Numbered from the stretch's first letter, positions 27,451-62,395 are shown. The stretch is DNA of 64,000 nucleotides from an uncultured Pseudomonadota bacterium (GCA_902761535.1 CACWKS010000002.1:142418-206417), one strand, 5' to 3'. Translations and numbers: made by a program. The notes: generated by a model not told the origin, from the sequence alone.

Positions 27451-30400
27451 ATGAATAAAAATTTTTGGTTACTGTTGTTTTTTATTTTATGTTGCCCGGT
27501 ATTGACTTATGCCGGCATAAAAACGATTAATGATACGCCTTATGCCAGTGGCAATTCTGCGACGGTTTCATCCGGATCTTCCGATGATAATTCGTTATCT
27601 GCAAATTCCCCCAAGAGCCAAAATCTTCTTAATTCTTCCAATAACAGCAATGATTCGCAGTCTGATTCCCAAGCTGATGGGGACAGTGACGGAGATGGCG
27701 ATGGAAACGAAACTTATCCTGCCTGTTATTTTTCCGGTTGTGAAAATTATTCTTCTTGCCAATATTATGATATAAATAGTTTGTCTGTGGCAAGCAATTA
27801 TTGCAGTTGTGCCGCCAACAATACGAATATTGCCTTATGTGATTCGCAATTACATTATCACAGCACGGTAAATTACAGCGGCTATGCACGTGGTTTAGGG
27901 GTGAGTGCCGACAGTTCACTGACTTTAGTTTCTGGACAAAACAATTATTATTACCTTTCGAATGTAGATTATTTTTGTCCGGTTAAGTTAAATCTTGCAA
28001 CTTTGGGATATACTCTCAATCCTCTTTCCCAAACTTATTATACTGCAGCCCGTAGTCTGGATTGTGATTATGATTCATCAACCGGAGTAAATTTATTTAG
28101 TTACACAGGTATTAACTGCATTCGCCCCGGTTATGGCATCCGAGATGAACAAATAGTCAATCTTTGTATTTATGGGTGTGAAAACAATCCAAACCCTTAT
28201 GATGATATGTTAAATTATGAGAATCGCCCCAAAGGATTGCAGTTTTGTGACGCATTACGCAATCAACGAGATACATCATCTGCACGTAGTTTTTATTCAA
28301 TGGATAGTTATGATGATTTGCCCGCTGCCGCCTCAACCAAATATTATATGTATCGTCCCAATGTAGCCGCGGCTCCTGATGATTTTGATTATCAACTTGC
28401 TGAATGTGCTATCCGGTGCGGGGTGTCCGGAAATGCTGATATAACTCCTATTTGCCAAGGGTGGTATTATTTGCAAAATTGCAGTTCTTTCACTGCAGCG
28501 GAAGAAGCGGCCGGTTATTATATTTCTCCGCTATACAATTCCTATGCTGAAGCTGTTGCCGCGGCTTCACAAATTTCCTCATTTGACATTTGTTACAATT
28601 TTGATTACATATATCGCAAATCAACCTTTATTCGTTGCGGAATCAAACATAGTGCCGACGCAACCAACGGTGTTTATTCTGAAACCGAATGTCGTACCAA
28701 CAACGGCGTTTGTTCTGATACAGAAGGCGACAATTATACTTGCGGTGGCGAAACCTATTGCAAACGCTGTGTTTGTCAAAGCGGATTGTATACATTAGCC
28801 GAATGGTGTGCCGCCAATAATATCACCGAAGATTGCGATACCGAACATTATAAGGGGCAGGGGAACGGATGTAACTATGACGACACCAGCAGCGACTTGA
28901 GCGGTGTTAAATATGCCTCTTGGATATTAGATCCTGATAATCCCGATAATGTTTGTCAGCCGGAAGGGCAATATGTGGCATTAGAGGACATTTCCGCAGC
29001 GACTGTTGACGAGTTACACAACACTTATGGTCCTTCTGCCCAAATAAGCAAATGTATATCCGACAACACTATGAAATGGCAGATTACCTGCAGCAGCGAC
29101 TATGCATATATTTGCGGCATTGTTGATACTCCGAGCAATTGGTGCACCCATGGACATGATTCTTCCACCACCATGCGCAGTGAGGCGGCTTCTTCATCTC
29201 CTCACAAATATTGCACCAGCGGAACGCTCAGCGGCATTTGCGGAGAATCGATTATAATCTCAAACGGCTCGGGAAGCAGTTTAATCCCTGCCTCTTATGA
29301 TTTGAGAATTTACGAAACGGAATCGCCAGAGCAGTGTTATAACAGGTATGGACGTGCGGCCTCGGTTCAGCCCTGTATTTCTATTGATAATTACGGCTCC
29401 AAATACAATTGCTACTATGATTTGCGAGAATACATTTATTCCACAACCAATGATAACGGAGCGGTAGTCTGTCCGGTTCGCCATGATCTTACCGGAAATT
29501 ATATAGTTCTCAATGGGCAGAAGCGATGGGCGGAATGCAATTGTATGGGGCTTTACGATTACACCATTTACACATGTTCCGGCAACGCAACCGTTATGGG
29601 CAAGGCTTGCACTCAGAATTTATCAAATGTAAATTCATCAAATACGTTAATCAACAAATGGAAAGATAAAGTTCCATATGATCAGGTCAACAATCGCATT
29701 TTGGTAAATTCGGTTGACTTATATCCGTATTGCCAATGCGATGAACGCTTCAAATACACTTGTGATGATAATGAAAGAACGTCACCGCTACCTGACAGTG
29801 CTTATTGTCAAGTTGATGGACGCTATTATTATGAATCTTGTCAGTGTACCAAAGATAGCTTGCCGGATCATTGGTCGGATAATTATTTCAATTGCACTTC
29901 CGGCGCACAACCGACCGGTATCTGGAAAGAAGACGGATGCGGCGGCAAGATGTACCAGTGTTCCGATACCATAGTATGCACGTCCGAATATACTCAAACT
30001 TGCAACGGCACCGGACAAATTGGTGTCAGCGGTTATGGTTGCCAAGATGACGAGGGTGCGTATGTTAAATGGAAAAAGTGTCAGTGCGATACTGCCGGCG
30101 GATGGCATACTTGTTTAGAGGATAATCAAAGCGGTGTAGGTGATCCCTGCATTTCCGGAAATGTTAATTATTATCAGTCTTGCTCATGTCCGTCAGGTTG
30201 GGCAACTTGCGATGACGAGCATATACCGGATTCTTCGGTGCAATCATGTCAAACTGACGATGGGATAATTGTCTATGCCTCTTGCGGCTGTAATAGTAAT
30301 TACAGCGAGTGTAGCGGCAACGGACAGGTTGGAGACACCTCATCGGGCATGTGTACATTAAGCGGCGGCACTACTGTTTATGAAAATTGCATCTGCAAGA

Positions 30401-33102
30401 GTGAGTATGACAAAACCTGTCAAGCTGATTCCTCCAATCACATCCGCGGTGATGACAGCGACGTATGCACCATATCCGGTTCTTCCGGTGAAACCGAAAA
30501 TTATTACAAGAGTTGCCGGTGTGAAGATGGCTATATTTTGACCTGCAGCGCTTCAGATCATTTGGTACCGAAAGACTCGGCCGATTATTGCCAAACTGCC
30601 TCCGGTGAAACCATGTATTATAACGAGTGCGAATGTGCATCCGGATATGATAAAACTTGTGAAGGTCAAACTCCGGCGGATATTAATGATTATTGTTCGC
30701 TTAACGGTGTAAGTTATTATACGGCTTGCACCGGATGTGATGCAGCCAGCGGTTGGATTATCTGCAGCGGAGCCAATCAAATTGGTGACGGACAGACTTG
30801 CACCTTCGACGAAACCACATATTACCAGTCTTGTATATGTCCTTCCGGTTGGACGGTTTGTGACGAAGACCATCAGCCTGATTTATCGGCACAGTCTTGC
30901 CAAACCAGCAGCGGAACCACCTATTACGAAAGTTGCATTTGCAACAGCAGTTATACCGAGTGCGGCGGCAATGGTCAGGTTGGCGACACCTCATCGGGCA
31001 TGTGTGTTATTGATGATGACACCACGGTTTATGAAAGATGTATCTGCAACAGCGAGTATAATCTGACCTGTCAAGCTGATTCCGGCAATCATATCCACGG
31101 CGATGCCGATGACGTATGCTCCATATCCGGTTCTTCCGGTGAACCCGAAAATTATTACAAAACTTGCCAATGCGACGATGGCTATACTTTGAGTTGCAGT
31201 GCTTCAGAACACTTAATTCCGAAAGATGCGGCAGATTATTGTCAAATTGTTATGGATGGAGCAATCCTCTACAACGAATGTCAGTGTGCTTCCGGCTACA
31301 CTTTGACTTGCAGTGACACGGACCATTTAGCTCCGAAAGACGATAGTGATTATTGCCAAACCGCTTCAGGCGAGACCAAGTATTACAACGAGTGTGAATG
31401 TGCTTCCGGATATGACAAAACCTGTTCGGCTGCTGACGGCTTATCTCCGGTTGATAGCAGTGACTATTGCTCGCTTAACGACGTAAGTTATTACACGGCT
31501 TGTACTTGTGATACTTCCGAGGGGTGGGTTATTTGCGACAATAATCAAATCGGCAATGGACCTGTTTGCACCTCCGGCGGCACCGATTATTATCAGTCTT
31601 GCTCTTGTCCGGAAGGATGGGTTACTTGTAACGGCGACCACCAAAGCGGCAACGAACCGGCTTGTATTTCCGGCGGCACCAGCTATTATCAGTCTTGCTC
31701 TTGTCCGGCGGGGTGGGTTGCCTGCGGAACTAACCAAATCGGAAACGGAACGCCTTGCGTATTGGGCGAAACCGAGTATTACCAGTCTTGCTCTTGTCCT
31801 TCCGACTGGACAATCTGTACCGATAACAAGGTCGGCGATCCGTCGTTAGGTTCTTGCACCATTGGCGGCACCACTGTTTATGAAAATTGTATTTGCCCAT
31901 CTCACTGGATTACTTGCGAAACTAACCAAAACGGGGTAGGAGAGGTTTGCACCTCCGGAGGAATTGATTATTATTCGTCTTGTATATGCCCCATTGATTG
32001 GACGGCATGTTCCGGCAATCACATCATTGGTGATCCGTCATCCGGTGCTTGTGCCATCAACGGCTCCACTGTTTATGAAAGTTGTGCTTGCGATTCCGGC
32101 TATACCGAAAACTGCTTAAATCAAGCTCCGGTTGATGAAAATGATTATTGCTCGCTCAACGGTGTAAGTTATTATACCGCTTGCACCGATTGTGGTGATG
32201 TAGTTAAGAGGTACGATTGCGGAGAGCGCGACGCAGGTCCGATTAACTGTATTCAAAGTTATTGGGATGGAACTATACAGACAACTTACGCTTCTTGCGA
32301 TTGCTCAATACCGGAGATATATGATGGTCGTAGAAACACTGAGGCAATTATCAGAGAGACTCCCCGTGGTGAATTTGCAGCTGATGTCGCTTATCAATAT
32401 CATCCTTCAAATCTTTCTCTATTGGATAATAATTTCGGTATTGGCCGTTGGTATCTTCCTGCTTATGGAGAAATGTATCAAATGGTTAATGTTATAGATA
32501 CCGTTAATTCAGGAATTTCAGCCGTATCCGGCGAAGTGATGTATCCAGATATATCGTATTGGAGCTCATCTGAAGTCGATATGTGGTATAGTATCAAGGT
32601 TTCTAAACAAAATGTAACATATCATTATGTTGATGAACAAGAAAAAAGAATACCATGCATATTTCGCATAGTTACTCTCTTAGAAAACAAACTGCCGGCA
32701 ACTTCTTTATCTAATATTGCCGGTGCCGCCGTCGGCGATGTGGTCTATAGTGACCTGACTTATGACAGCTATACCAATCCTCATTCTGACAAAACTCCGG
32801 TCGGAGTGGTCTATTGGGTTTCCTCTGACAAATCTCGTGTGCGTATAGTTTCTCCTAATCAGCCCAAAATGCTGCCCTGGGGTTGGGGTGGATTTTATAC
32901 TTACGTGAAGCTGGAGGATGTACCCACTGAAGTAGGTGAATGGGAAATGGAAAGTCAAATGTGTTGGGACGATAATCAAAATGAATATGAGTGTTATGAG
33001 GTTGATGGTGGTATAGATATCACAGGTATTAAGAATTTAGGATCGAACATGTTTAACGACGGTATAGGTTGTACTTCTACGGAAATTCTTGACAATCTTT
33101 AG
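27451..33102 (+). CDS. Giant secreted cysteine-rich tandem-repeat protein (1883 aa) with more than 30 EGF-like 4-Cys modules and a distinct C-terminal domain
   Basis: Signal peptide MNKNFWLLLFFILCCPVLTYA. A S/N/D-rich linker including DGDSDGDGDG. About 1100 aa of repeats of the form C-x6-11-YY-x2-C-x-C-x2-G-[WY]-x2-3-C. A Cys-poor C-terminal domain of about 300 aa. Confidence 0.85.
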   Translation: MNKNFWLLLFFILCCPVLTYAGIKTINDTPYASGNSATVSSGSSDDNSLSANSPKSQNLLNSSNNSNDSQSDSQADGDSDGDGDGNETYPACYFSGCENYSSCQYYDINSLSVASNYCSCAANNTNIALCDSQLHYHSTVNYSGYARGLGVSADSSLTLVSGQNNYYYLSNVDYFCPVKLNLATLGYTLNPLSQTYYTAARSLDCDYDSSTGVNLFSYTGINCIRPGYGIRDEQIVNLCIYGCENNPNPYDDMLNYENRPKGLQFCDALRNQRDTSSARSFYSMDSYDDLPAAASTKYYMYRPNVAAAPDDFDYQLAECAIRCGVSGNADITPICQGWYYLQNCSSFTAAEEAAGYYISPLYNSYAEAVAAASQISSFDICYNFDYIYRKSTFIRCGIKHSADATNGVYSETECRTNNGVCSDTEGDNYTCGGETYCKRCVCQSGLYTLAEWCAANNITEDCDTEHYKGQGNGCNYDDTSSDLSGVKYASWILDPDNPDNVCQPEGQYVALEDISAATVDELHNTYGPSAQISKCISDNTMKWQITCSSDYAYICGIVDTPSNWCTHGHDSSTTMRSEAASSSPHKYCTSGTLSGICGESIIISNGSGSSLIPASYDLRIYETESPEQCYNRYGRAASVQPCISIDNYGSKYNCYYDLREYIYSTTNDNGAVVCPVRHDLTGNYIVLNGQKRWAECNCMGLYDYTIYTCSGNATVMGKACTQNLSNVNSSNTLINKWKDKVPYDQVNNRILVNSVDLYPYCQCDERFKYTCDDNERTSPLPDSAYCQVDGRYYYESCQCTKDSLPDHWSDNYFNCTSGAQPTGIWKEDGCGGKMYQCSDTIVCTSEYTQTCNGTGQIGVSGYGCQDDEGAYVKWKKCQCDTAGGWHTCLEDNQSGVGDPCISGNVNYYQSCSCPSGWATCDDEHIPDSSVQSCQTDDGIIVYASCGCNSNYSECSGNGQVGDTSSGMCTLSGGTTVYENCICKSEYDKTCQADSSNHIRGDDSDVCTISGSSGETENYYKSCRCEDGYILTCSASDHLVPKDSADYCQTASGETMYYNECECASGYDKTCEGQTPADINDYCSLNGVSYYTACTGCDAASGWIICSGANQIGDGQTCTFDETTYYQSCICPSGWTVCDEDHQPDLSAQSCQTSSGTTYYESCICNSSYTECGGNGQVGDTSSGMCVIDDDTTVYERCICNSEYNLTCQADSGNHIHGDADDVCSISGSSGEPENYYKTCQCDDGYTLSCSASEHLIPKDAADYCQIVMDGAILYNECQCASGYTLTCSDTDHLAPKDDSDYCQTASGETKYYNECECASGYDKTCSAADGLSPVDSSDYCSLNDVSYYTACTCDTSEGWVICDNNQIGNGPVCTSGGTDYYQSCSCPEGWVTCNGDHQSGNEPACISGGTSYYQSCSCPAGWVACGTNQIGNGTPCVLGETEYYQSCSCPSDWTICTDNKVGDPSLGSCTIGGTTVYENCICPSHWITCETNQNGVGEVCTSGGIDYYSSCICPIDWTACSGNHIIGDPSSGACAINGSTVYESCACDSGYTENCLNQAPVDENDYCSLNGVSYYTACTDCGDVVKRYDCGERDAGPINCIQSYWDGTIQTTYASCDCSIPEIYDGRRNTEAIIRETPRGEFAADVAYQYHPSNLSLLDNNFGIGRWYLPAYGEMYQMVNVIDTVNSGISAVSGEVMYPDISYWSSSEVDMWYSIKVSKQNVTYHYVDEQEKRIPCIFRIVTLLENKLPATSLSNIAGAAVGDVVYSDLTYDSYTNPHSDKTPVGVVYWVSSDKSRVRIVSPNQPKMLPWGWGGFYTYVKLEDVPTEVGEWEMESQMCWDDNQNEYECYEVDGGIDITGIKNLGSNMFNDGIGCTSTEILDNL

Positions 33103-33129
33103 TTAATGCCCTCTGCCCAAATTATTAAC

Positions 33130-34410
33130 CTGTCATGCCTGAGCAACTGAAAGTTGCGAATAAGGCATCTTCGAAAAAAAAACTGTCATGCCTCAATCGG
33201 CGAAAACAAAACGACCAAACCTGTCATGCCTCAATCGGCGCCAGTCCGATTGATAAGGCATCTTCGAATTTTTTAAAAATTCGTAGCCCCCTTATTCGCC
33301 TCATTTTATTCGGCTCAGGGGTGACATTTAAAAAAACTGTCATGCCTGAGCGGTTGCAAACCGCGAATAAGGCATCTTCGAAAAAAAAACTGTCATGCCT
33401 CAATCGGCGAAAACAAAACAAGTAAGGGGATAAGAGGGGATAAAATACTTCCTTTTTTGCTTTATTAAAAAAAATAATTCGAAGATGCCTTACTCCACTC
33501 ACTTCGTTCGTTTCGGGCATGACATTTTATATTTAAACTGTCATGCCTGAGCGGTTGCAAACCGCGAATAAGGCATCTTCGAATTTTCTCTTGTAAAAAC
33601 CTATTTTATGAAATATAATCAACTTTATGAAAGAAATGTATGTTTATATAATGACCAATAAAAATAATACCACATTATATATCGGTGTTACGTCTGATTT
33701 AGTCCGTCGGGTTTATGAACATAAAAACGGCATTTTTAAGGGCTTTACTTCTGAATATAATTTAAATAAGTTGGTGTACTATGAAATAATTGATGGTGAA
33801 ACTCAAGCCATTGAACGAGAAAAACAACTTAAAAAATTTTATAAAGATTATAAGAAACGTCTTATTACAGAAAAGAATCCTTCATGGCAAGACTTATATT
33901 CTGAAATTTGCAGTGAGTAGTAAAAATAATTCGAAGATGCCTAACTCCGAAATATAACTTGTCACCCCTGAGCAACTGAAAGTTGCGAATAAGGGGTCTA
34001 CGAATTTGCCCTTCCCCTTGCAAGCAAGGGGATAAGAGGGGATAAAATACTTCCTTATTTTTACTTTATTAAAAAATAATTCGAAGATGCCTAACTCCGT
34101 TCGCTAACGCTCACTACGGGCATGACATTAATATTTTTTCTCAGGGTTTGGGATTTATGAGTAAAGCGGAAAAAGCAAATATTAAATCGGCTGGCAGTAT
34201 TTCTTTATGCGGCTTACGTCGCGCGCTTTAGTGTGTAAGTTAAGCCGCAGCCTTATGCCGTTTTAATATTTGCCCGCTTTGCGAATATCCCAATGACTTT
34301 TGGTTACTTTTTGTTGCCAAAAAGTAACGCAAATATAAATATAAAAATAAAAATAATTCGAAGATGCCTTACTCCGTTCGCTCCGCTCTCTTAAGGGCAT
34401 GACATTAATA
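33130..34410. repeat. Dense cluster of at least 12 copies, in both orientations, of a 45-60-bp hairpin element family. The core is tgtcATGCC-[internal hairpin]-aataaGGCATcttcgaa, with variants.
   Basis: Copies sit at about 33130-33175, 33184-33214 (partial), 33221-33268, 33278-33328 (reverse variant), 33337-33382, 33389-33420 (partial), 33479-33526 (reverse), 33538-33584, 33925-33950 (reverse, partial), 33957-34003 (CCCC/GGGG variant), 34062-34133 (reverse) and 34340-34405 (reverse). Auxiliary motif aaggggataagaggggataaaatacttcc occurs twice. Confidence 0.85.
33627..33920 (+). CDS. GIY-YIG (URI-domain) nuclease family protein, COG2827-type small endonuclease
   Basis: YVYIMTNKNNTTLYIGVTSDLVRRVYEHKNG matches the GIY-x10-YIG signature, including the conserved R and the E of EHK. 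The likely start is the MYVYIM Met at about 33636. Confidence 0.75.
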   Translation: MKEMYVYIMTNKNNTTLYIGVTSDLVRRVYEHKNGIFKGFTSEYNLNKLVYYEIIDGETQAIEREKQLKKFYKDYKKRLITEKNPSWQDLYSEICSE

Positions 34411-34444
34411 TTTAACCTGTCCTTCCCAAAAACAAAAATAAAAC

Positions 34445-35365
34445 TTATCTGATAAATTCTTTAGGTCTGGTAAAACTCGGCATCTGTTCTTTATCATCAT
34501 TTTTTGCCGGAGCCGATATTGAAATATTACCGTTAAATACCGTTTCTGCCTGTTGTTTGCCGATTGCAATATAAATATCACTCATACCTGATGCCGGATA
34601 ATAATATTTATCCAAAGCCGGAATTTTTTCATTTTTTCCCAGTATCAAATAACCGCCTTGTGGTTGTCTTTCACTCAAACGTTTTAAAATTTCATCTTGA
34701 TGTTCTGTATCAAAATATTTTAATAAATTGCGGCAAAATACCACTTCAAACTTATTGGTTCCGGCAATGTCATCTAAAACATTATAATGACGGAAATCCA
34801 CTTTATGTCTTATTATATCTTTCGCCAGCCATTGCTCTCGGTTGATTTCAAAATATTCCAATATGTCATCAATACTTAAACCGGTCTGAATTTCAAAATT
34901 ATTATACAAGCCGCGTTGTGATTTATTGATCGCCACCACTGATATATCCGAACCTGAAATATTTATCTTCCAGTTTTGAAAATTCTTTTTGCATTTATCA
35001 AATATAATTGCAATACTGTAAGTCTCCTGTCCGCTTGAACATCCGACACTCCACACGTTTATTTCTTTGCGTGAACGACATTTGTCTTTTAGTTTTGGCA
35101 AAACTTTATTTTTAAAATCAGCAAAAACTTCAGCGTCACGAAAAAACATTGTATCCGAAAAAGCTATTGTTTCCACCACTTGATTTATCAGAGTGCGATT
35201 ACCTGTCCTCAGCTCGTTTATCAAATCTTCTTCCGAACCGTAATTTTTACCGCGGATAAAATTAGCAATTTTTTTCTCTATAACAAAATAATTTTTTTCA
35301 TCAAACTGCCATCCGGCATTTTCTTTCATCAGCTTCAATAAAAAATTAAAATCTTTTTTTAACAT
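34445..35365 (-). CDS. CheR-type protein-glutamate O-methyltransferase-like protein
   Basis: CheR N-terminal helical domain plus a SAM-binding methyltransferase fold (VWSVGCSSGQETYSIAI). Confidence 0.7.
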   Translation of the reverse strand: MLKKDFNFLLKLMKENAGWQFDEKNYFVIEKKIANFIRGKNYGSEEDLINELRTGNRTLINQVVETIAFSDTMFFRDAEVFADFKNKVLPKLKDKCRSRKEINVWSVGCSSGQETYSIAIIFDKCKKNFQNWKINISGSDISVVAINKSQRGLYNNFEIQTGLSIDDILEYFEINREQWLAKDIIRHKVDFRHYNVLDDIAGTNKFEVVFCRNLLKYFDTEHQDEILKRLSERQPQGGYLILGKNEKIPALDKYYYPASGMSDIYIAIGKQQAETVFNGNISISAPAKNDDKEQMPSFTRPKEFIR

Positions 35366-60933: not shown

Positions 60934-61008
60934 TCCGGCTTAGCTCAGCGGTAGAGCAATCGGCTGTTAACCGATTGGTCGCCTGTTCGAATCAGGCAGC
61001 CGGAGCCA
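60934..61008 (+). tRNA. tRNA-Asn (anticodon GTT), CCA encoded
   Basis: Acceptor tccggct/agccgga. D-arm agctcagcggtagagc. Anticodon loop ct-GTT-aa. T-arm cctgttcgaatcagg. Confidence 0.8.
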
Positions 61009-61041
61009 ATAAAAAAATACTCACCCTTGTGGTGAGTATTT
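61009..61041 (+). terminator. Rho-independent terminator after tRNA-Asn
   Basis: tactcacc-cttg-tggtgagta hairpin followed by a T7 run. Confidence 0.7.
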
Positions 61042-61074
61042 TTTTATGTCCCGTCTATCTGATGCGGATAGGCG

Positions 61075-61195
61075 AGCAAAGGGAGCCTGTTTGACCGGAG
61101 GTCGGCTTTTGTATAAGTAAAAGCCGGACGAACGGCGGCTTTAGCCCATCAGGCAGCCGTCCTTATTTTACTCACCCTTGTGGTATTTTTTATGC
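61075..61195 (+). repeat. Degenerate second copy of the tRNA-Asn T-arm / 3' end / terminator, with a ~60-bp hairpin element inserted at the T-loop
   Basis: gcctgtt + [tgaccggaggtcggcttttgtataagtaaaagccggacgaacggcggctttagccc] + atcaggcagccg-tcc + ttattttactcacccttgtggtattttt. The element core is a hairpin (gtcggcttttg...aaaagccggac). Confidence 0.6.
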
Positions 61196-62191: not shown

Positions 62192-62262
62192 CTGAATATT
62201 CTAAGAGTGCTCAACATAAAGCAGCCCCGCAAATTGTAAACAAAAACGGTATAGACAGTTAA

Positions 62263-62395
62263 ACAATTGGTCGCCTGTTTGACTGGAGGTCGGCTTTTGC
62301 GGCTGTAAAAGCCGGACGAACGGCGGCTTTATCCCGTCCGGTAGCCGGAGCCAATAAAAAAATACTCACCCTTGTGGTGAGTATTTTTTTAGTCG
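62263..62395 (+). repeat. Third copy of the tRNA-Asn 3' half (intact acceptor end and terminator), interrupted at the same T-loop position by the same hairpin element
   Basis: ttggtcgcctgtt + [tgactggaggtcggcttttgcggctgtaaaagccggacgaacggcggctttatcccgtccggt] + agccggagccaataaaaaaatactcacccttgtggtgagtattttttt. The segment after the insertion is identical to the 3' end of the real tRNA-Asn plus its terminator. Confidence 0.65.

Follow-up and report, generated by a model that had tools for sequence, protein, structure and literature searches.

The 1342-nt intergenic region at 33103-34444 of the window (the whole 64,000-nucleotide stretch analysed here, from an uncultured Pseudomonadota bacterium, GCA_902761535.1 CACWKS010000002.1:142418-206417) is a dense cluster of nine full and three half copies of a ~45-nt repeat element, bounded by the gene of a giant secreted protein (27451-33102, + strand) and by cheR (34445-35365, - strand), and it encloses an ssn-like gene for a predicted GIY-YIG nuclease. 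We propose, with a probability of roughly 0.8, that these repeats are divergent, clade-specific Ssn-related motifs (SRMs), which would be recognised when single-stranded by the nuclease encoded at 33627-33920, a proposal that draws on sequence comparison and on analogy with characterised relatives. Read in this way, the cluster is a divergent member of the known Ssn/SRM system with a new clade-specific repeat form, and not a new kind of element.

Ssn enzymes are ~94-aa single-domain GIY-YIG nucleases of family cd10448 that bind hairpin repeats, termed NTS in Neisseria (CGTCATTCCCGCGMAVGCGGGAATCYRG) and SRM in general, only as single-stranded DNA (ssDNA), and not as double-stranded DNA, RNA or the reverse strand, and that cleave a few nucleotides upstream of the hairpin (Chenal et al., Nat Commun 2025; PMC11893778). 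In the same work, cutting depends on the three nucleotides 5′ of the palindrome and binding crucially on the C just after it, activity survives when an extra stem replaces or extends the loop, and split halves are also cleaved; the usual gene order is SRM-ssn-SRM, and the homology criterion for Ssn was tblastn E<1e-10 (PMC11893778). The Neisseria system acts against ssDNA that enters the cell in transformation, and NTS clusters there adjoin genes for surface proteins.

The GIY-YIG domain of the window's nuclease (PF01541) spans residues 4-74 of the 97-aa protein, with no second domain. Y7, Y18 (followed by I-G), R28, H32, E65 and N84 are all present and are invariant or nearly so among homologues (85-87 of 87), and, judged by position, Y7, Y18 and E65 would be equivalent to Y6, Y17 and E64 of N. 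meningitidis SsnA. Repeats flank the gene in inverted orientation, with a full copy upstream on the gene's own strand (33539-33583) and, downstream on the opposite strand, a half copy (33930-33949) and a full copy (34080-34127). The only sequence match of the nuclease in the PDB was 1ZG2 (UPF0213, E=0.004); NCBIfam offered no useful family, with a single sub-threshold match to a group I intron endonuclease model, and a literature search on GIY-YIG proteins with repetitive extragenic palindromic (REP) sequences, COG2827, UPF0213 and YhbQ returned nothing relevant.

Relatives of the repeat were collected by scanning species-representative genomes with the arm positions left open, which returned at least 110 stretches. 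About 40 of these are true family loci, from 21 metagenome-assembled genomes (MAGs) of uncultured gut and rumen bacteria named 'Alphaproteobacteria bacterium' (all genome counts are lower bounds, and L-numbers label collected loci or contigs); the remaining stretches held single chance matches without hairpins. Within the family loci and the window, an anchor-only search for TGTCA...CT[AT]CGAA, in which arms and stem are unconstrained, found 66 copies against 2.2 expected from shuffles, and a covariance model found 123 copies, 107 of them distinct, in the window, the strain-variant contig L003 and the 40 loci. Homologues of the nuclease adjoin family repeats in L063 (two genes, 77% and 61% identity), L071 (66%) and L034 (54%), and the polarity of gene and repeats seen in the window is repeated in L063 and L071. 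At positions 1-1030 of L063 the two paralogues lie tail to tail, each with its own repeat class: extended TGTCATGCC...CTTCGAA repeats stand alongside the first (77%), and canonical-like TGTCATTCTCGGGC-ttga-CCCGAGAATC and TGTCACCCTCGGG...CCCGAGGGTCAGACA around the second (61%). This genome thus appears to carry two enzyme-repeat pairs.

More broadly, a metagenome scan with the window protein yielded 82 homologues of 49-62% identity from many environments, and visual inspection shows (C/T)GTCATTCCCGC-loop-GCGGGAATCCAG upstream of nearly all of them, with its reverse complement on the downstream side. Matches to the published degenerate SRM motif, HGTCWYN(0-2)YYVSBRHN(0-5)WNVSBRGN(0-2)RNCYNB, lie within 250 nt of 51 of the 82, and on both sides in 24, against a background of 0.06 per kb; they favour the gene's strand upstream (35:6) and the opposite strand downstream (43:6), and the exact Neisseria NTS consensus is found at seven loci. 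In the 40 family loci the motif has three matches, all of the other, canonical repeat type, and a covariance model of the window variant finds none of the canonical SRMs. The extended repeat goes with Ssn proteins at least 66% identical to the window's (those of the window, L063 gene 1 and L071), and homologues of 62% identity or less have canonical repeats, a division that suggests a co-evolved subclade of enzyme and substrate.

The repeat is laid out as TGTCA, then a left arm of 5 nt, T, the variable interior, three unpaired nucleotides, A, a right arm of 5 nt and CTTCGAA, after which TTA usually comes. Full copies in the window are 45-48 nt long, and the covariance model, run with filters off, finds exactly these nine and no others in the 64 kb. 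All window copies open with TGTCAT or TGTCAC, in agreement with the HGTCWY flank of SRMs. Among model-found copies, GTC is present in 103 of the 103 with a base there (the first base of the flank being T in 83, C in 13, A in 4 and G in 3), and a C stands directly 3′ of the stem in 103 of 105. The invariant frame comprises GTC, the closing A-T, C-G and T-A pairs, the 3-nt bulge, the C and the TTCGAATTA tail; the stems covary freely. Upstream of TGTCA, 11 nt are A/T-rich, with a trend wwTTAAm, and poor in G, which is present in 0-3 of 65 copies at each position from -8 to -1 and in 2-8 from -11 to -9, against 19.5% genome-wide; by analogy with the characterised enzymes, this stretch is where Ssn cleavage would be expected. 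The 3′ tail continues TTA-n-TT-w-AAA. The 66 anchor-found copies lie between genes, except that two overlap doubtful 100-aa open reading frames, and copies lie either way relative to adjacent genes, often head to head a few nucleotides apart. They are also clustered: the selected loci, 331 kb in total, hold 123 copies, and a cluster often has 3-9.

A sequence-only reading of the window had drawn attention to two variant copies in which ATGCC/GGCAT becomes ACCCC/GGGGT, both arms having changed together with pairing preserved. The forward copy at 33960-34004 is exactly as described. In the reverse copy at 33280-33326 the left arm was read correctly, but the right arm is GGGGG-CTACGAA and not GGGGT-CTACGAA, leaving four C-G pairs intact and the outermost A-T pair lost. 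Seven of the nine full copies in the window have arms ATGCC/GGCAT and two have ACCCC/GGGG(T/G), with no mixed arms; the corresponding 2x2 table gives p ~0.03 if the nine copies are independent. The window alone is weak evidence, and its two arm types could each descend from one ancestor. An inner-stem swap of three pairs also occurs within the cluster, from GCAACT-gaa-AGTTGC (33145-33161) to GCGGTT-gca-AACCGC (33352-33368 and 33553-33569), and the inner hairpin of 33960-34004 is that of 33131-33175.

The larger copy sets are decisive on the covariation of the arms. When the anchor-found set was combined with L003 and duplicates were collapsed, 59 distinct copies remained, in which 86.8% of cells are paired, compared with 60.9% for shuffled partners (none of 500 shuffles is as high as the real alignment) and 30-45% for partners displaced by 1-3 columns; RNAalifold, applied to the anchor-found alignment, independently gave the same two helices. 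The 107 distinct copies of the model-based set, whose alignment is structure-fitted and so leans towards structure, give 89.1%, against 61.8% for shuffles and 28-47% for slid controls. In these 107 copies the three variable positions of the outer stem read U-A 82 / C-G 19, C-G 69 / G-C 27 / U-A 3 / A-U 1, and C-G 87 / G-C 17, with 0-2 one-sided changes per pair. Family-wide, seven of seven inner-stem pairs covary, each with three or four Watson-Crick types; covariation is seen in 11 of the 13 pairs of the hairpin, and G-T pairs make up ~1% of cells. The arms therefore do not vary independently in either set, the outcome that would have counted against the original suggestion, and its wider claims hold up: either the hairpin is maintained or propagation is limited to copies able to form it, and an element whose outer stem changes in pairs with almost no one-sided changes, and whose seven inner-stem pairs covary, is not decayed junk.

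At least eight complementary arm types occur in the family: ATGCC/GGCAT, ACCCC/GGGGT, ATCCC/GGGAT, ACACC/GGTGT, ACCGC/GCGGT, ATCGC/GCGAT, ATTCC/GGAAT and ATTCT/AGAAT, among which ATTCC/GGAAT is the canonical NTS arm. A single MAG can hold up to six. Because ATGCC and ACCCC occur side by side in several genomes, and at least seven MAGs carry each of them, they are old subfamilies, and the window records no fresh compensatory event. A cleaner single pair swap is found in one MAG, where copies with ACCCC/GGGGT (L028, L062 and L074) and with ACACC/GGTGT (L071) are otherwise identical.

How might a nuclease maintain such pairing? Taking the biochemistry of the Neisseria and Wolbachia enzymes as a guide, the strand 5′-TGTCA...CTTCGAA-3′ would fold when it becomes single-stranded during replication, repair or DNA uptake. 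If published enzymology applies here, the nuclease would bind the hairpin plus its flanks, the unpaired GTC (5′) and the C (3′), and the cut would fall in the upstream flank. A change in one arm would then be tolerated or propagated only with a complementary change in the other, and the arms would covary because only paired arms make a substrate. The distal stem, if not read by the enzyme, would drift freely while remaining paired, consistent with the loop-replacement experiments. Covariation most likely reflects a need for an ssDNA hairpin and not for RNA, because G-T pairs are so few (~1%), orientation is independent of transcription units, Rfam gives no meaningful match and Ssn enzymes do not bind RNA. 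Pairing may persist through selection on copies, because competent copies spread preferentially or, in part, through correction of one arm with the other as template. More speculatively, the Ssn protein of this clade may read hairpin shape plus a small fixed frame (GTC, the closing pairs, the 3-nt bulge, the C and the tail), leaving the three outer-stem pairs and the distal stem free, an idea that we put forward tentatively and that differs from the behaviour of Neisseria SsnA, which is inactive on an altered palindrome even if the hairpin still forms. If it is true, the natural covariation map would show which positions of an Ssn substrate are reprogrammable.

Several observations weigh against assigning the repeats to the Ssn system. 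The published SRM motif matches none of the window copies in a search of the 64 kb, because the hairpin is too long for the motif. Within the 8-kb stretches collected, an ssn gene is present in only three of the 40 family loci in addition to the window, and most copies lie far from such a gene, as do most NTS copies in Neisseria. One cluster, next to a single ssn gene, holds two arm types and three interior types, and Neisseria SsnA is inactive after a palindrome change that keeps the hairpin (PMC11893778). Four of the eight distinct window copies folded as ssDNA have z-scores of -2.6 to -3.7, whereas the other four are at about zero or positive: the copies at 33280-33326, 33478-33524, 34080-34127 and 34357-34404 fold like shuffles beyond the 5-bp outer stem, and their interiors are met again in other genomes. 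Finally, the link to the characterised SsnA is indirect, running through homologues and architecture.

A different account of the covariation is purely mechanical: mismatches in an extruded hairpin could be corrected off the other arm, by template switching (quasipalindrome correction), so that arms stay complementary whatever their function. One-sided changes and G-T intermediates are indeed nearly absent (~1% of cells), double transversions, for example G-C to C-G and C-G to A-T, are frequent, and in one MAG otherwise identical copies (L028, L062 and L074 against L071) differ by one clean pair swap. Such correction leaves unexplained both the invariant unpaired frame (GTC, C, 3-nt bulge and tail) and the persistence of the same arm types across at least seven species, and it should erase the asymmetric bulge, which is conserved. 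The bulge and frame argue that templated correction alone is insufficient, and we consider it unlikely to be the explanation, while noting that it is compatible with recognition by Ssn and may contribute.

A less probable alternative still is that these are generic repeats of the REP or bacterial interspersed mosaic element (BIME) kind, spread or used by another agent, such as a RAYT-type HUH transposase, or serving as transcript-end stabilisers or terminators, with the GIY-YIG gene merely co-located in a permissive intergenic region. The repeats are clustered, intergenic, present in both orientations and mosaic with half copies, and for most copies the 8-kb stretch lacks an ssn gene, all of which would suit such elements. 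The conserved 5′ motif is, however, (T/C)GTCA and not the GTAG of REPs, and it is the frame GTC-A...T-C on which Ssn depends in vitro (PMC11893778). Moreover, a fixed polarity of gene and repeat recurs in the window, L063, L071 and the 82 distant homologues, the flanked gene encodes a GIY-YIG and not an HUH/Y1 enzyme (a RAYT elsewhere in the window or genome was not searched for), and the terminator version sits poorly with the lack of orientation preference relative to upstream genes. We regard this alternative as quite improbable.

That the repeat encodes a structured RNA (a small RNA or a cis-regulatory hairpin), as the RNA-seq check suggested in the sequence-only reading would assume, seems most improbable of all: covariation of such strength is typical of RNA families, yet G-U pairs at ~1% of cells are far below the level usual for RNA helices, copies lie on either strand relative to flanking genes and often head to head, and the associated enzymes bind ssDNA and not RNA (PMC11893778). 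At gathering threshold, Rfam finds two tRNAs only in the whole window, and at E<=1 over 33000-34500 it returns one chance-level match only, to the unrelated sRNA family VR-RNA (17.5 bits against a gathering value of 100, E=0.55).

Other candidate identities were rejected. No tRNA lies in the repeat region, which speaks against a tRNA-derived origin, and a pattern scan of viral contigs gave single chance matches without hairpins only. A terminator or 3′-untranslated-region hairpin does not fit an orientation that is unbiased relative to neighbouring genes. A K-turn was suggested by the tandem G-A/A-G pairs that adjoin the bulge of the TGAGC...GCGAAT subtype, but this bulge lies on the wrong side for such a motif, and Watson-Crick pairs occupy these positions in other subtypes. 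A REP/RAYT assignment fails on both the 5′ motif and the enzyme, and integron attC sites or CRISPR arrays on the lack of core sites, cassettes or regular spacing.

Coordinates of the repeat copies, the nuclease gene and the direct repeat in the window (z, ssDNA folding z-score)
Feature	Position	Strand	Evidence
Full repeat, arms ATGCC/GGCAT, inner stem GCAACT/AGTTGC	33131..33175	+	56.3 bits; ssDNA fold -8.2 kcal/mol, z -3.2
5′ half copy, TGTCATGCCTCAATCGGCG then AAAACAAAAC, without right arm	33184..33202	+	repeat family D7
Full repeat, arms ATGCC/GGCAT, inner stem CAATCGG/CCGATTG	33222..33268	+	covariance model; z -3.7
Full repeat TGTCACCCCTGAGCCGAATAAAATGAGGCGAATAAGGGGGCTACGAA, variant arms ACCCC/GGGGG, outermost pair lost, tail CTACGAA	33280..33326	-	z -0.2
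Full repeat, arms ATGCC/GGCAT, inner stem GCGGTT/AACCGC	33338..33382	+	covariance model; z -2.9
5′ half copy, identical to 33184-33202	33391..33409	+	
Full repeat, arms ATGCC/GGCAT, non-pairing conserved interior GAACGAAGTGAG	33478..33524	-	z +0.4
Full repeat, identical to 33338-33382, same strand as nuclease gene, 43 nt before its ATG	33539..33583	+	
ssn-like gene, 97-aa single-domain GIY-YIG nuclease (predicted)	33627..33920	+	Pfam PF01541, E=1e-17
3′ half copy (reverse complement CGGAGTTAGGCATCTTCGAA), 9 nt past nuclease stop codon, opposite to gene	33930..33949	-	
Full repeat TGTCACCCCTGAGCAACTGAAAGTTGCGAATAAGGGGTCTACGAA, variant arms ACCCC/GGGGT, tail CTACGAA	33960..34004	+	z -2.6
Full repeat, arms ATGCC/GGCAT, weakly pairing interior, opposite to nuclease gene	34080..34127	-	z 0.05
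Full repeat, arms ATGCC/GGCAT, non-pairing interior, 41 nt from cheR 3′ end	34357..34404	-	z +1.4
85-nt direct repeat (G-rich AAGGGGATAAGAGGGG segment, A/T tract, start of reverse repeat)	33419..33503 and 34021..34105	+	family D8, 84% identity

The cluster has further internal structure. The two copies of the 85-nt direct repeat bracket the nuclease gene unit at a spacing of 602 nt and are found only in contigs of this species; the element holds a G-rich hairpin, CCCTTCCCCTTGC-aag-CAAGGGGATAAGAGGGG, at 34008-34040. An 86-nt block consisting of a full and a half copy is duplicated (33127-33212 and 33334-33419). Metagenome contig L003, whose positions 1-130 correspond to 33278-33640 of the window, encodes an identical nuclease and lacks 201 bp between the copies at 33338-33382 and 33539-33583, a strain-level rearrangement consistent with recombination between identical repeats; its downstream variant copy has GGGGC-CTTCGAA where the window has GGGGT-CTACGAA.

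The non-pairing interior is itself a subtype conserved across genomes, with the form GAACGAAGTGAG or GAGCG..AGCGAACGGAG, and it is seen elsewhere at L044 1286-1326, L077 5126-5166 and L071 7167-7204. The window's non-pairing copies (33478-33524, 34080-34127 and 34357-34404) are all opposite to the nuclease gene. Half copies are common, occurring in the window, at L034 4355-4456 and L063 840-1020, and in the flanks of L141 and L161. Tandem 5′ halves (TGTCA, left arm and a spacer of 8-11 nt) precede a full copy, an arrangement also present in canonical SRM clusters. Orphan 5′ and 3′ halves number 42 and 20 in family loci and, with a weaker excess, 37 and 30 at metagenome ssn loci, counts from which we draw no claim. 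The 5′ halves could be footprints of repeat multiplication, or alternative pairing partners for a single 3′ half.

Among neighbouring features, the + strand gene at 27451-33102 encodes a protein of 1883 aa whose N-terminus resembles a signal peptide and which contains many Cys-rich repeats (YYQSCSCPxGW units); its DNA has periodicities of 651 nt and ~96 nt, the protein has no Pfam match, and the repeat cluster starts 29 nt past its stop codon. Elsewhere in the window, the 3′ end of a tRNA-Asn gene with its terminator hairpin is duplicated 1345 nt downstream at 96% identity (60934-61046 and the 62262-62391 region), and a 75-nt G+C-rich element is present twice at 87% identity (61085-61159, with the second copy inside the T-arm of the apparent tRNA-Asn duplicate). 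This duplication may be a remnant of integration at a tRNA, and no integrase is visible between the duplicate copies.

There are several implications. First, an anonymous structured repeat would gain a name and a biochemical mechanism that has been tested in the Ssn family, which was described only in 2025. Second, that family would be extended to uncultured gut and rumen Alphaproteobacteria through a variant that the published motif misses, and SRM censuses are therefore probably incomplete. Finally, the covariation table amounts to a cheap natural mutagenesis map that could guide studies of the specificity of Ssn enzymes, which are under development as ssDNA tools.

Like integron attC sites, the window repeat would be a recombination or cleavage site recognised as a folded single strand, with a conserved structure, a few conserved unpaired or extrahelical bases and a freely covarying stem; it has no R''/R' core sites, gene cassettes or integrase and is not a member of that group. 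REP/BIME elements and REPINs, with their RAYT enzymes (IS200/IS605-like HUH), are likewise short imperfect palindromes with a conserved unpaired 5′ motif, form intergenic clusters in both orientations and flank the gene of an enzyme that recognises them as ssDNA hairpins; compensatory changes of the arms are known among them too. They differ in both the enzyme (HUH/Y1 as opposed to GIY-YIG) and the motif (GTAG as opposed to GTCA), and we know of no transposition chemistry for Ssn. As for the dRS3/NIME repeats of Neisseria, NTS is the oriented subset of dRS3 (ATTCCC-N8-GGGAAT); both families have ATTCC/GGAAT arms and form mosaic arrays with other repeats, and they differ in stem length, tail and host. 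In Neisseria, dRS3 is also a target of phage or IS110-type integration, a use that we do not see for the window repeats.

Compared with the Ssn/SRM system itself, the window hairpin is longer (~13 bp in two tiers, as opposed to ~7-9 bp), carries a conserved 3-nt bulge (TCA, AAT or ATT) on its 3′ side and ends in the tail CTTCGAATTA in place of CYRG; several arm sequences stand beside one gene, and the hosts are uncultured gut and rumen Alphaproteobacteria. Both, however, pair a single-domain GIY-YIG protein of ~95 aa, with the same catalytic residues, with inverted hairpin repeats flanking its gene. In both, the repeats are multi-copy, intergenic, clustered and oriented, their distal stem or loop is free to vary, and they share the frame (H)GTC, A-stem...stem-T and C. 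The cluster also lies beside the gene of a large secreted or surface protein, as NTS clusters do in Neisseria.

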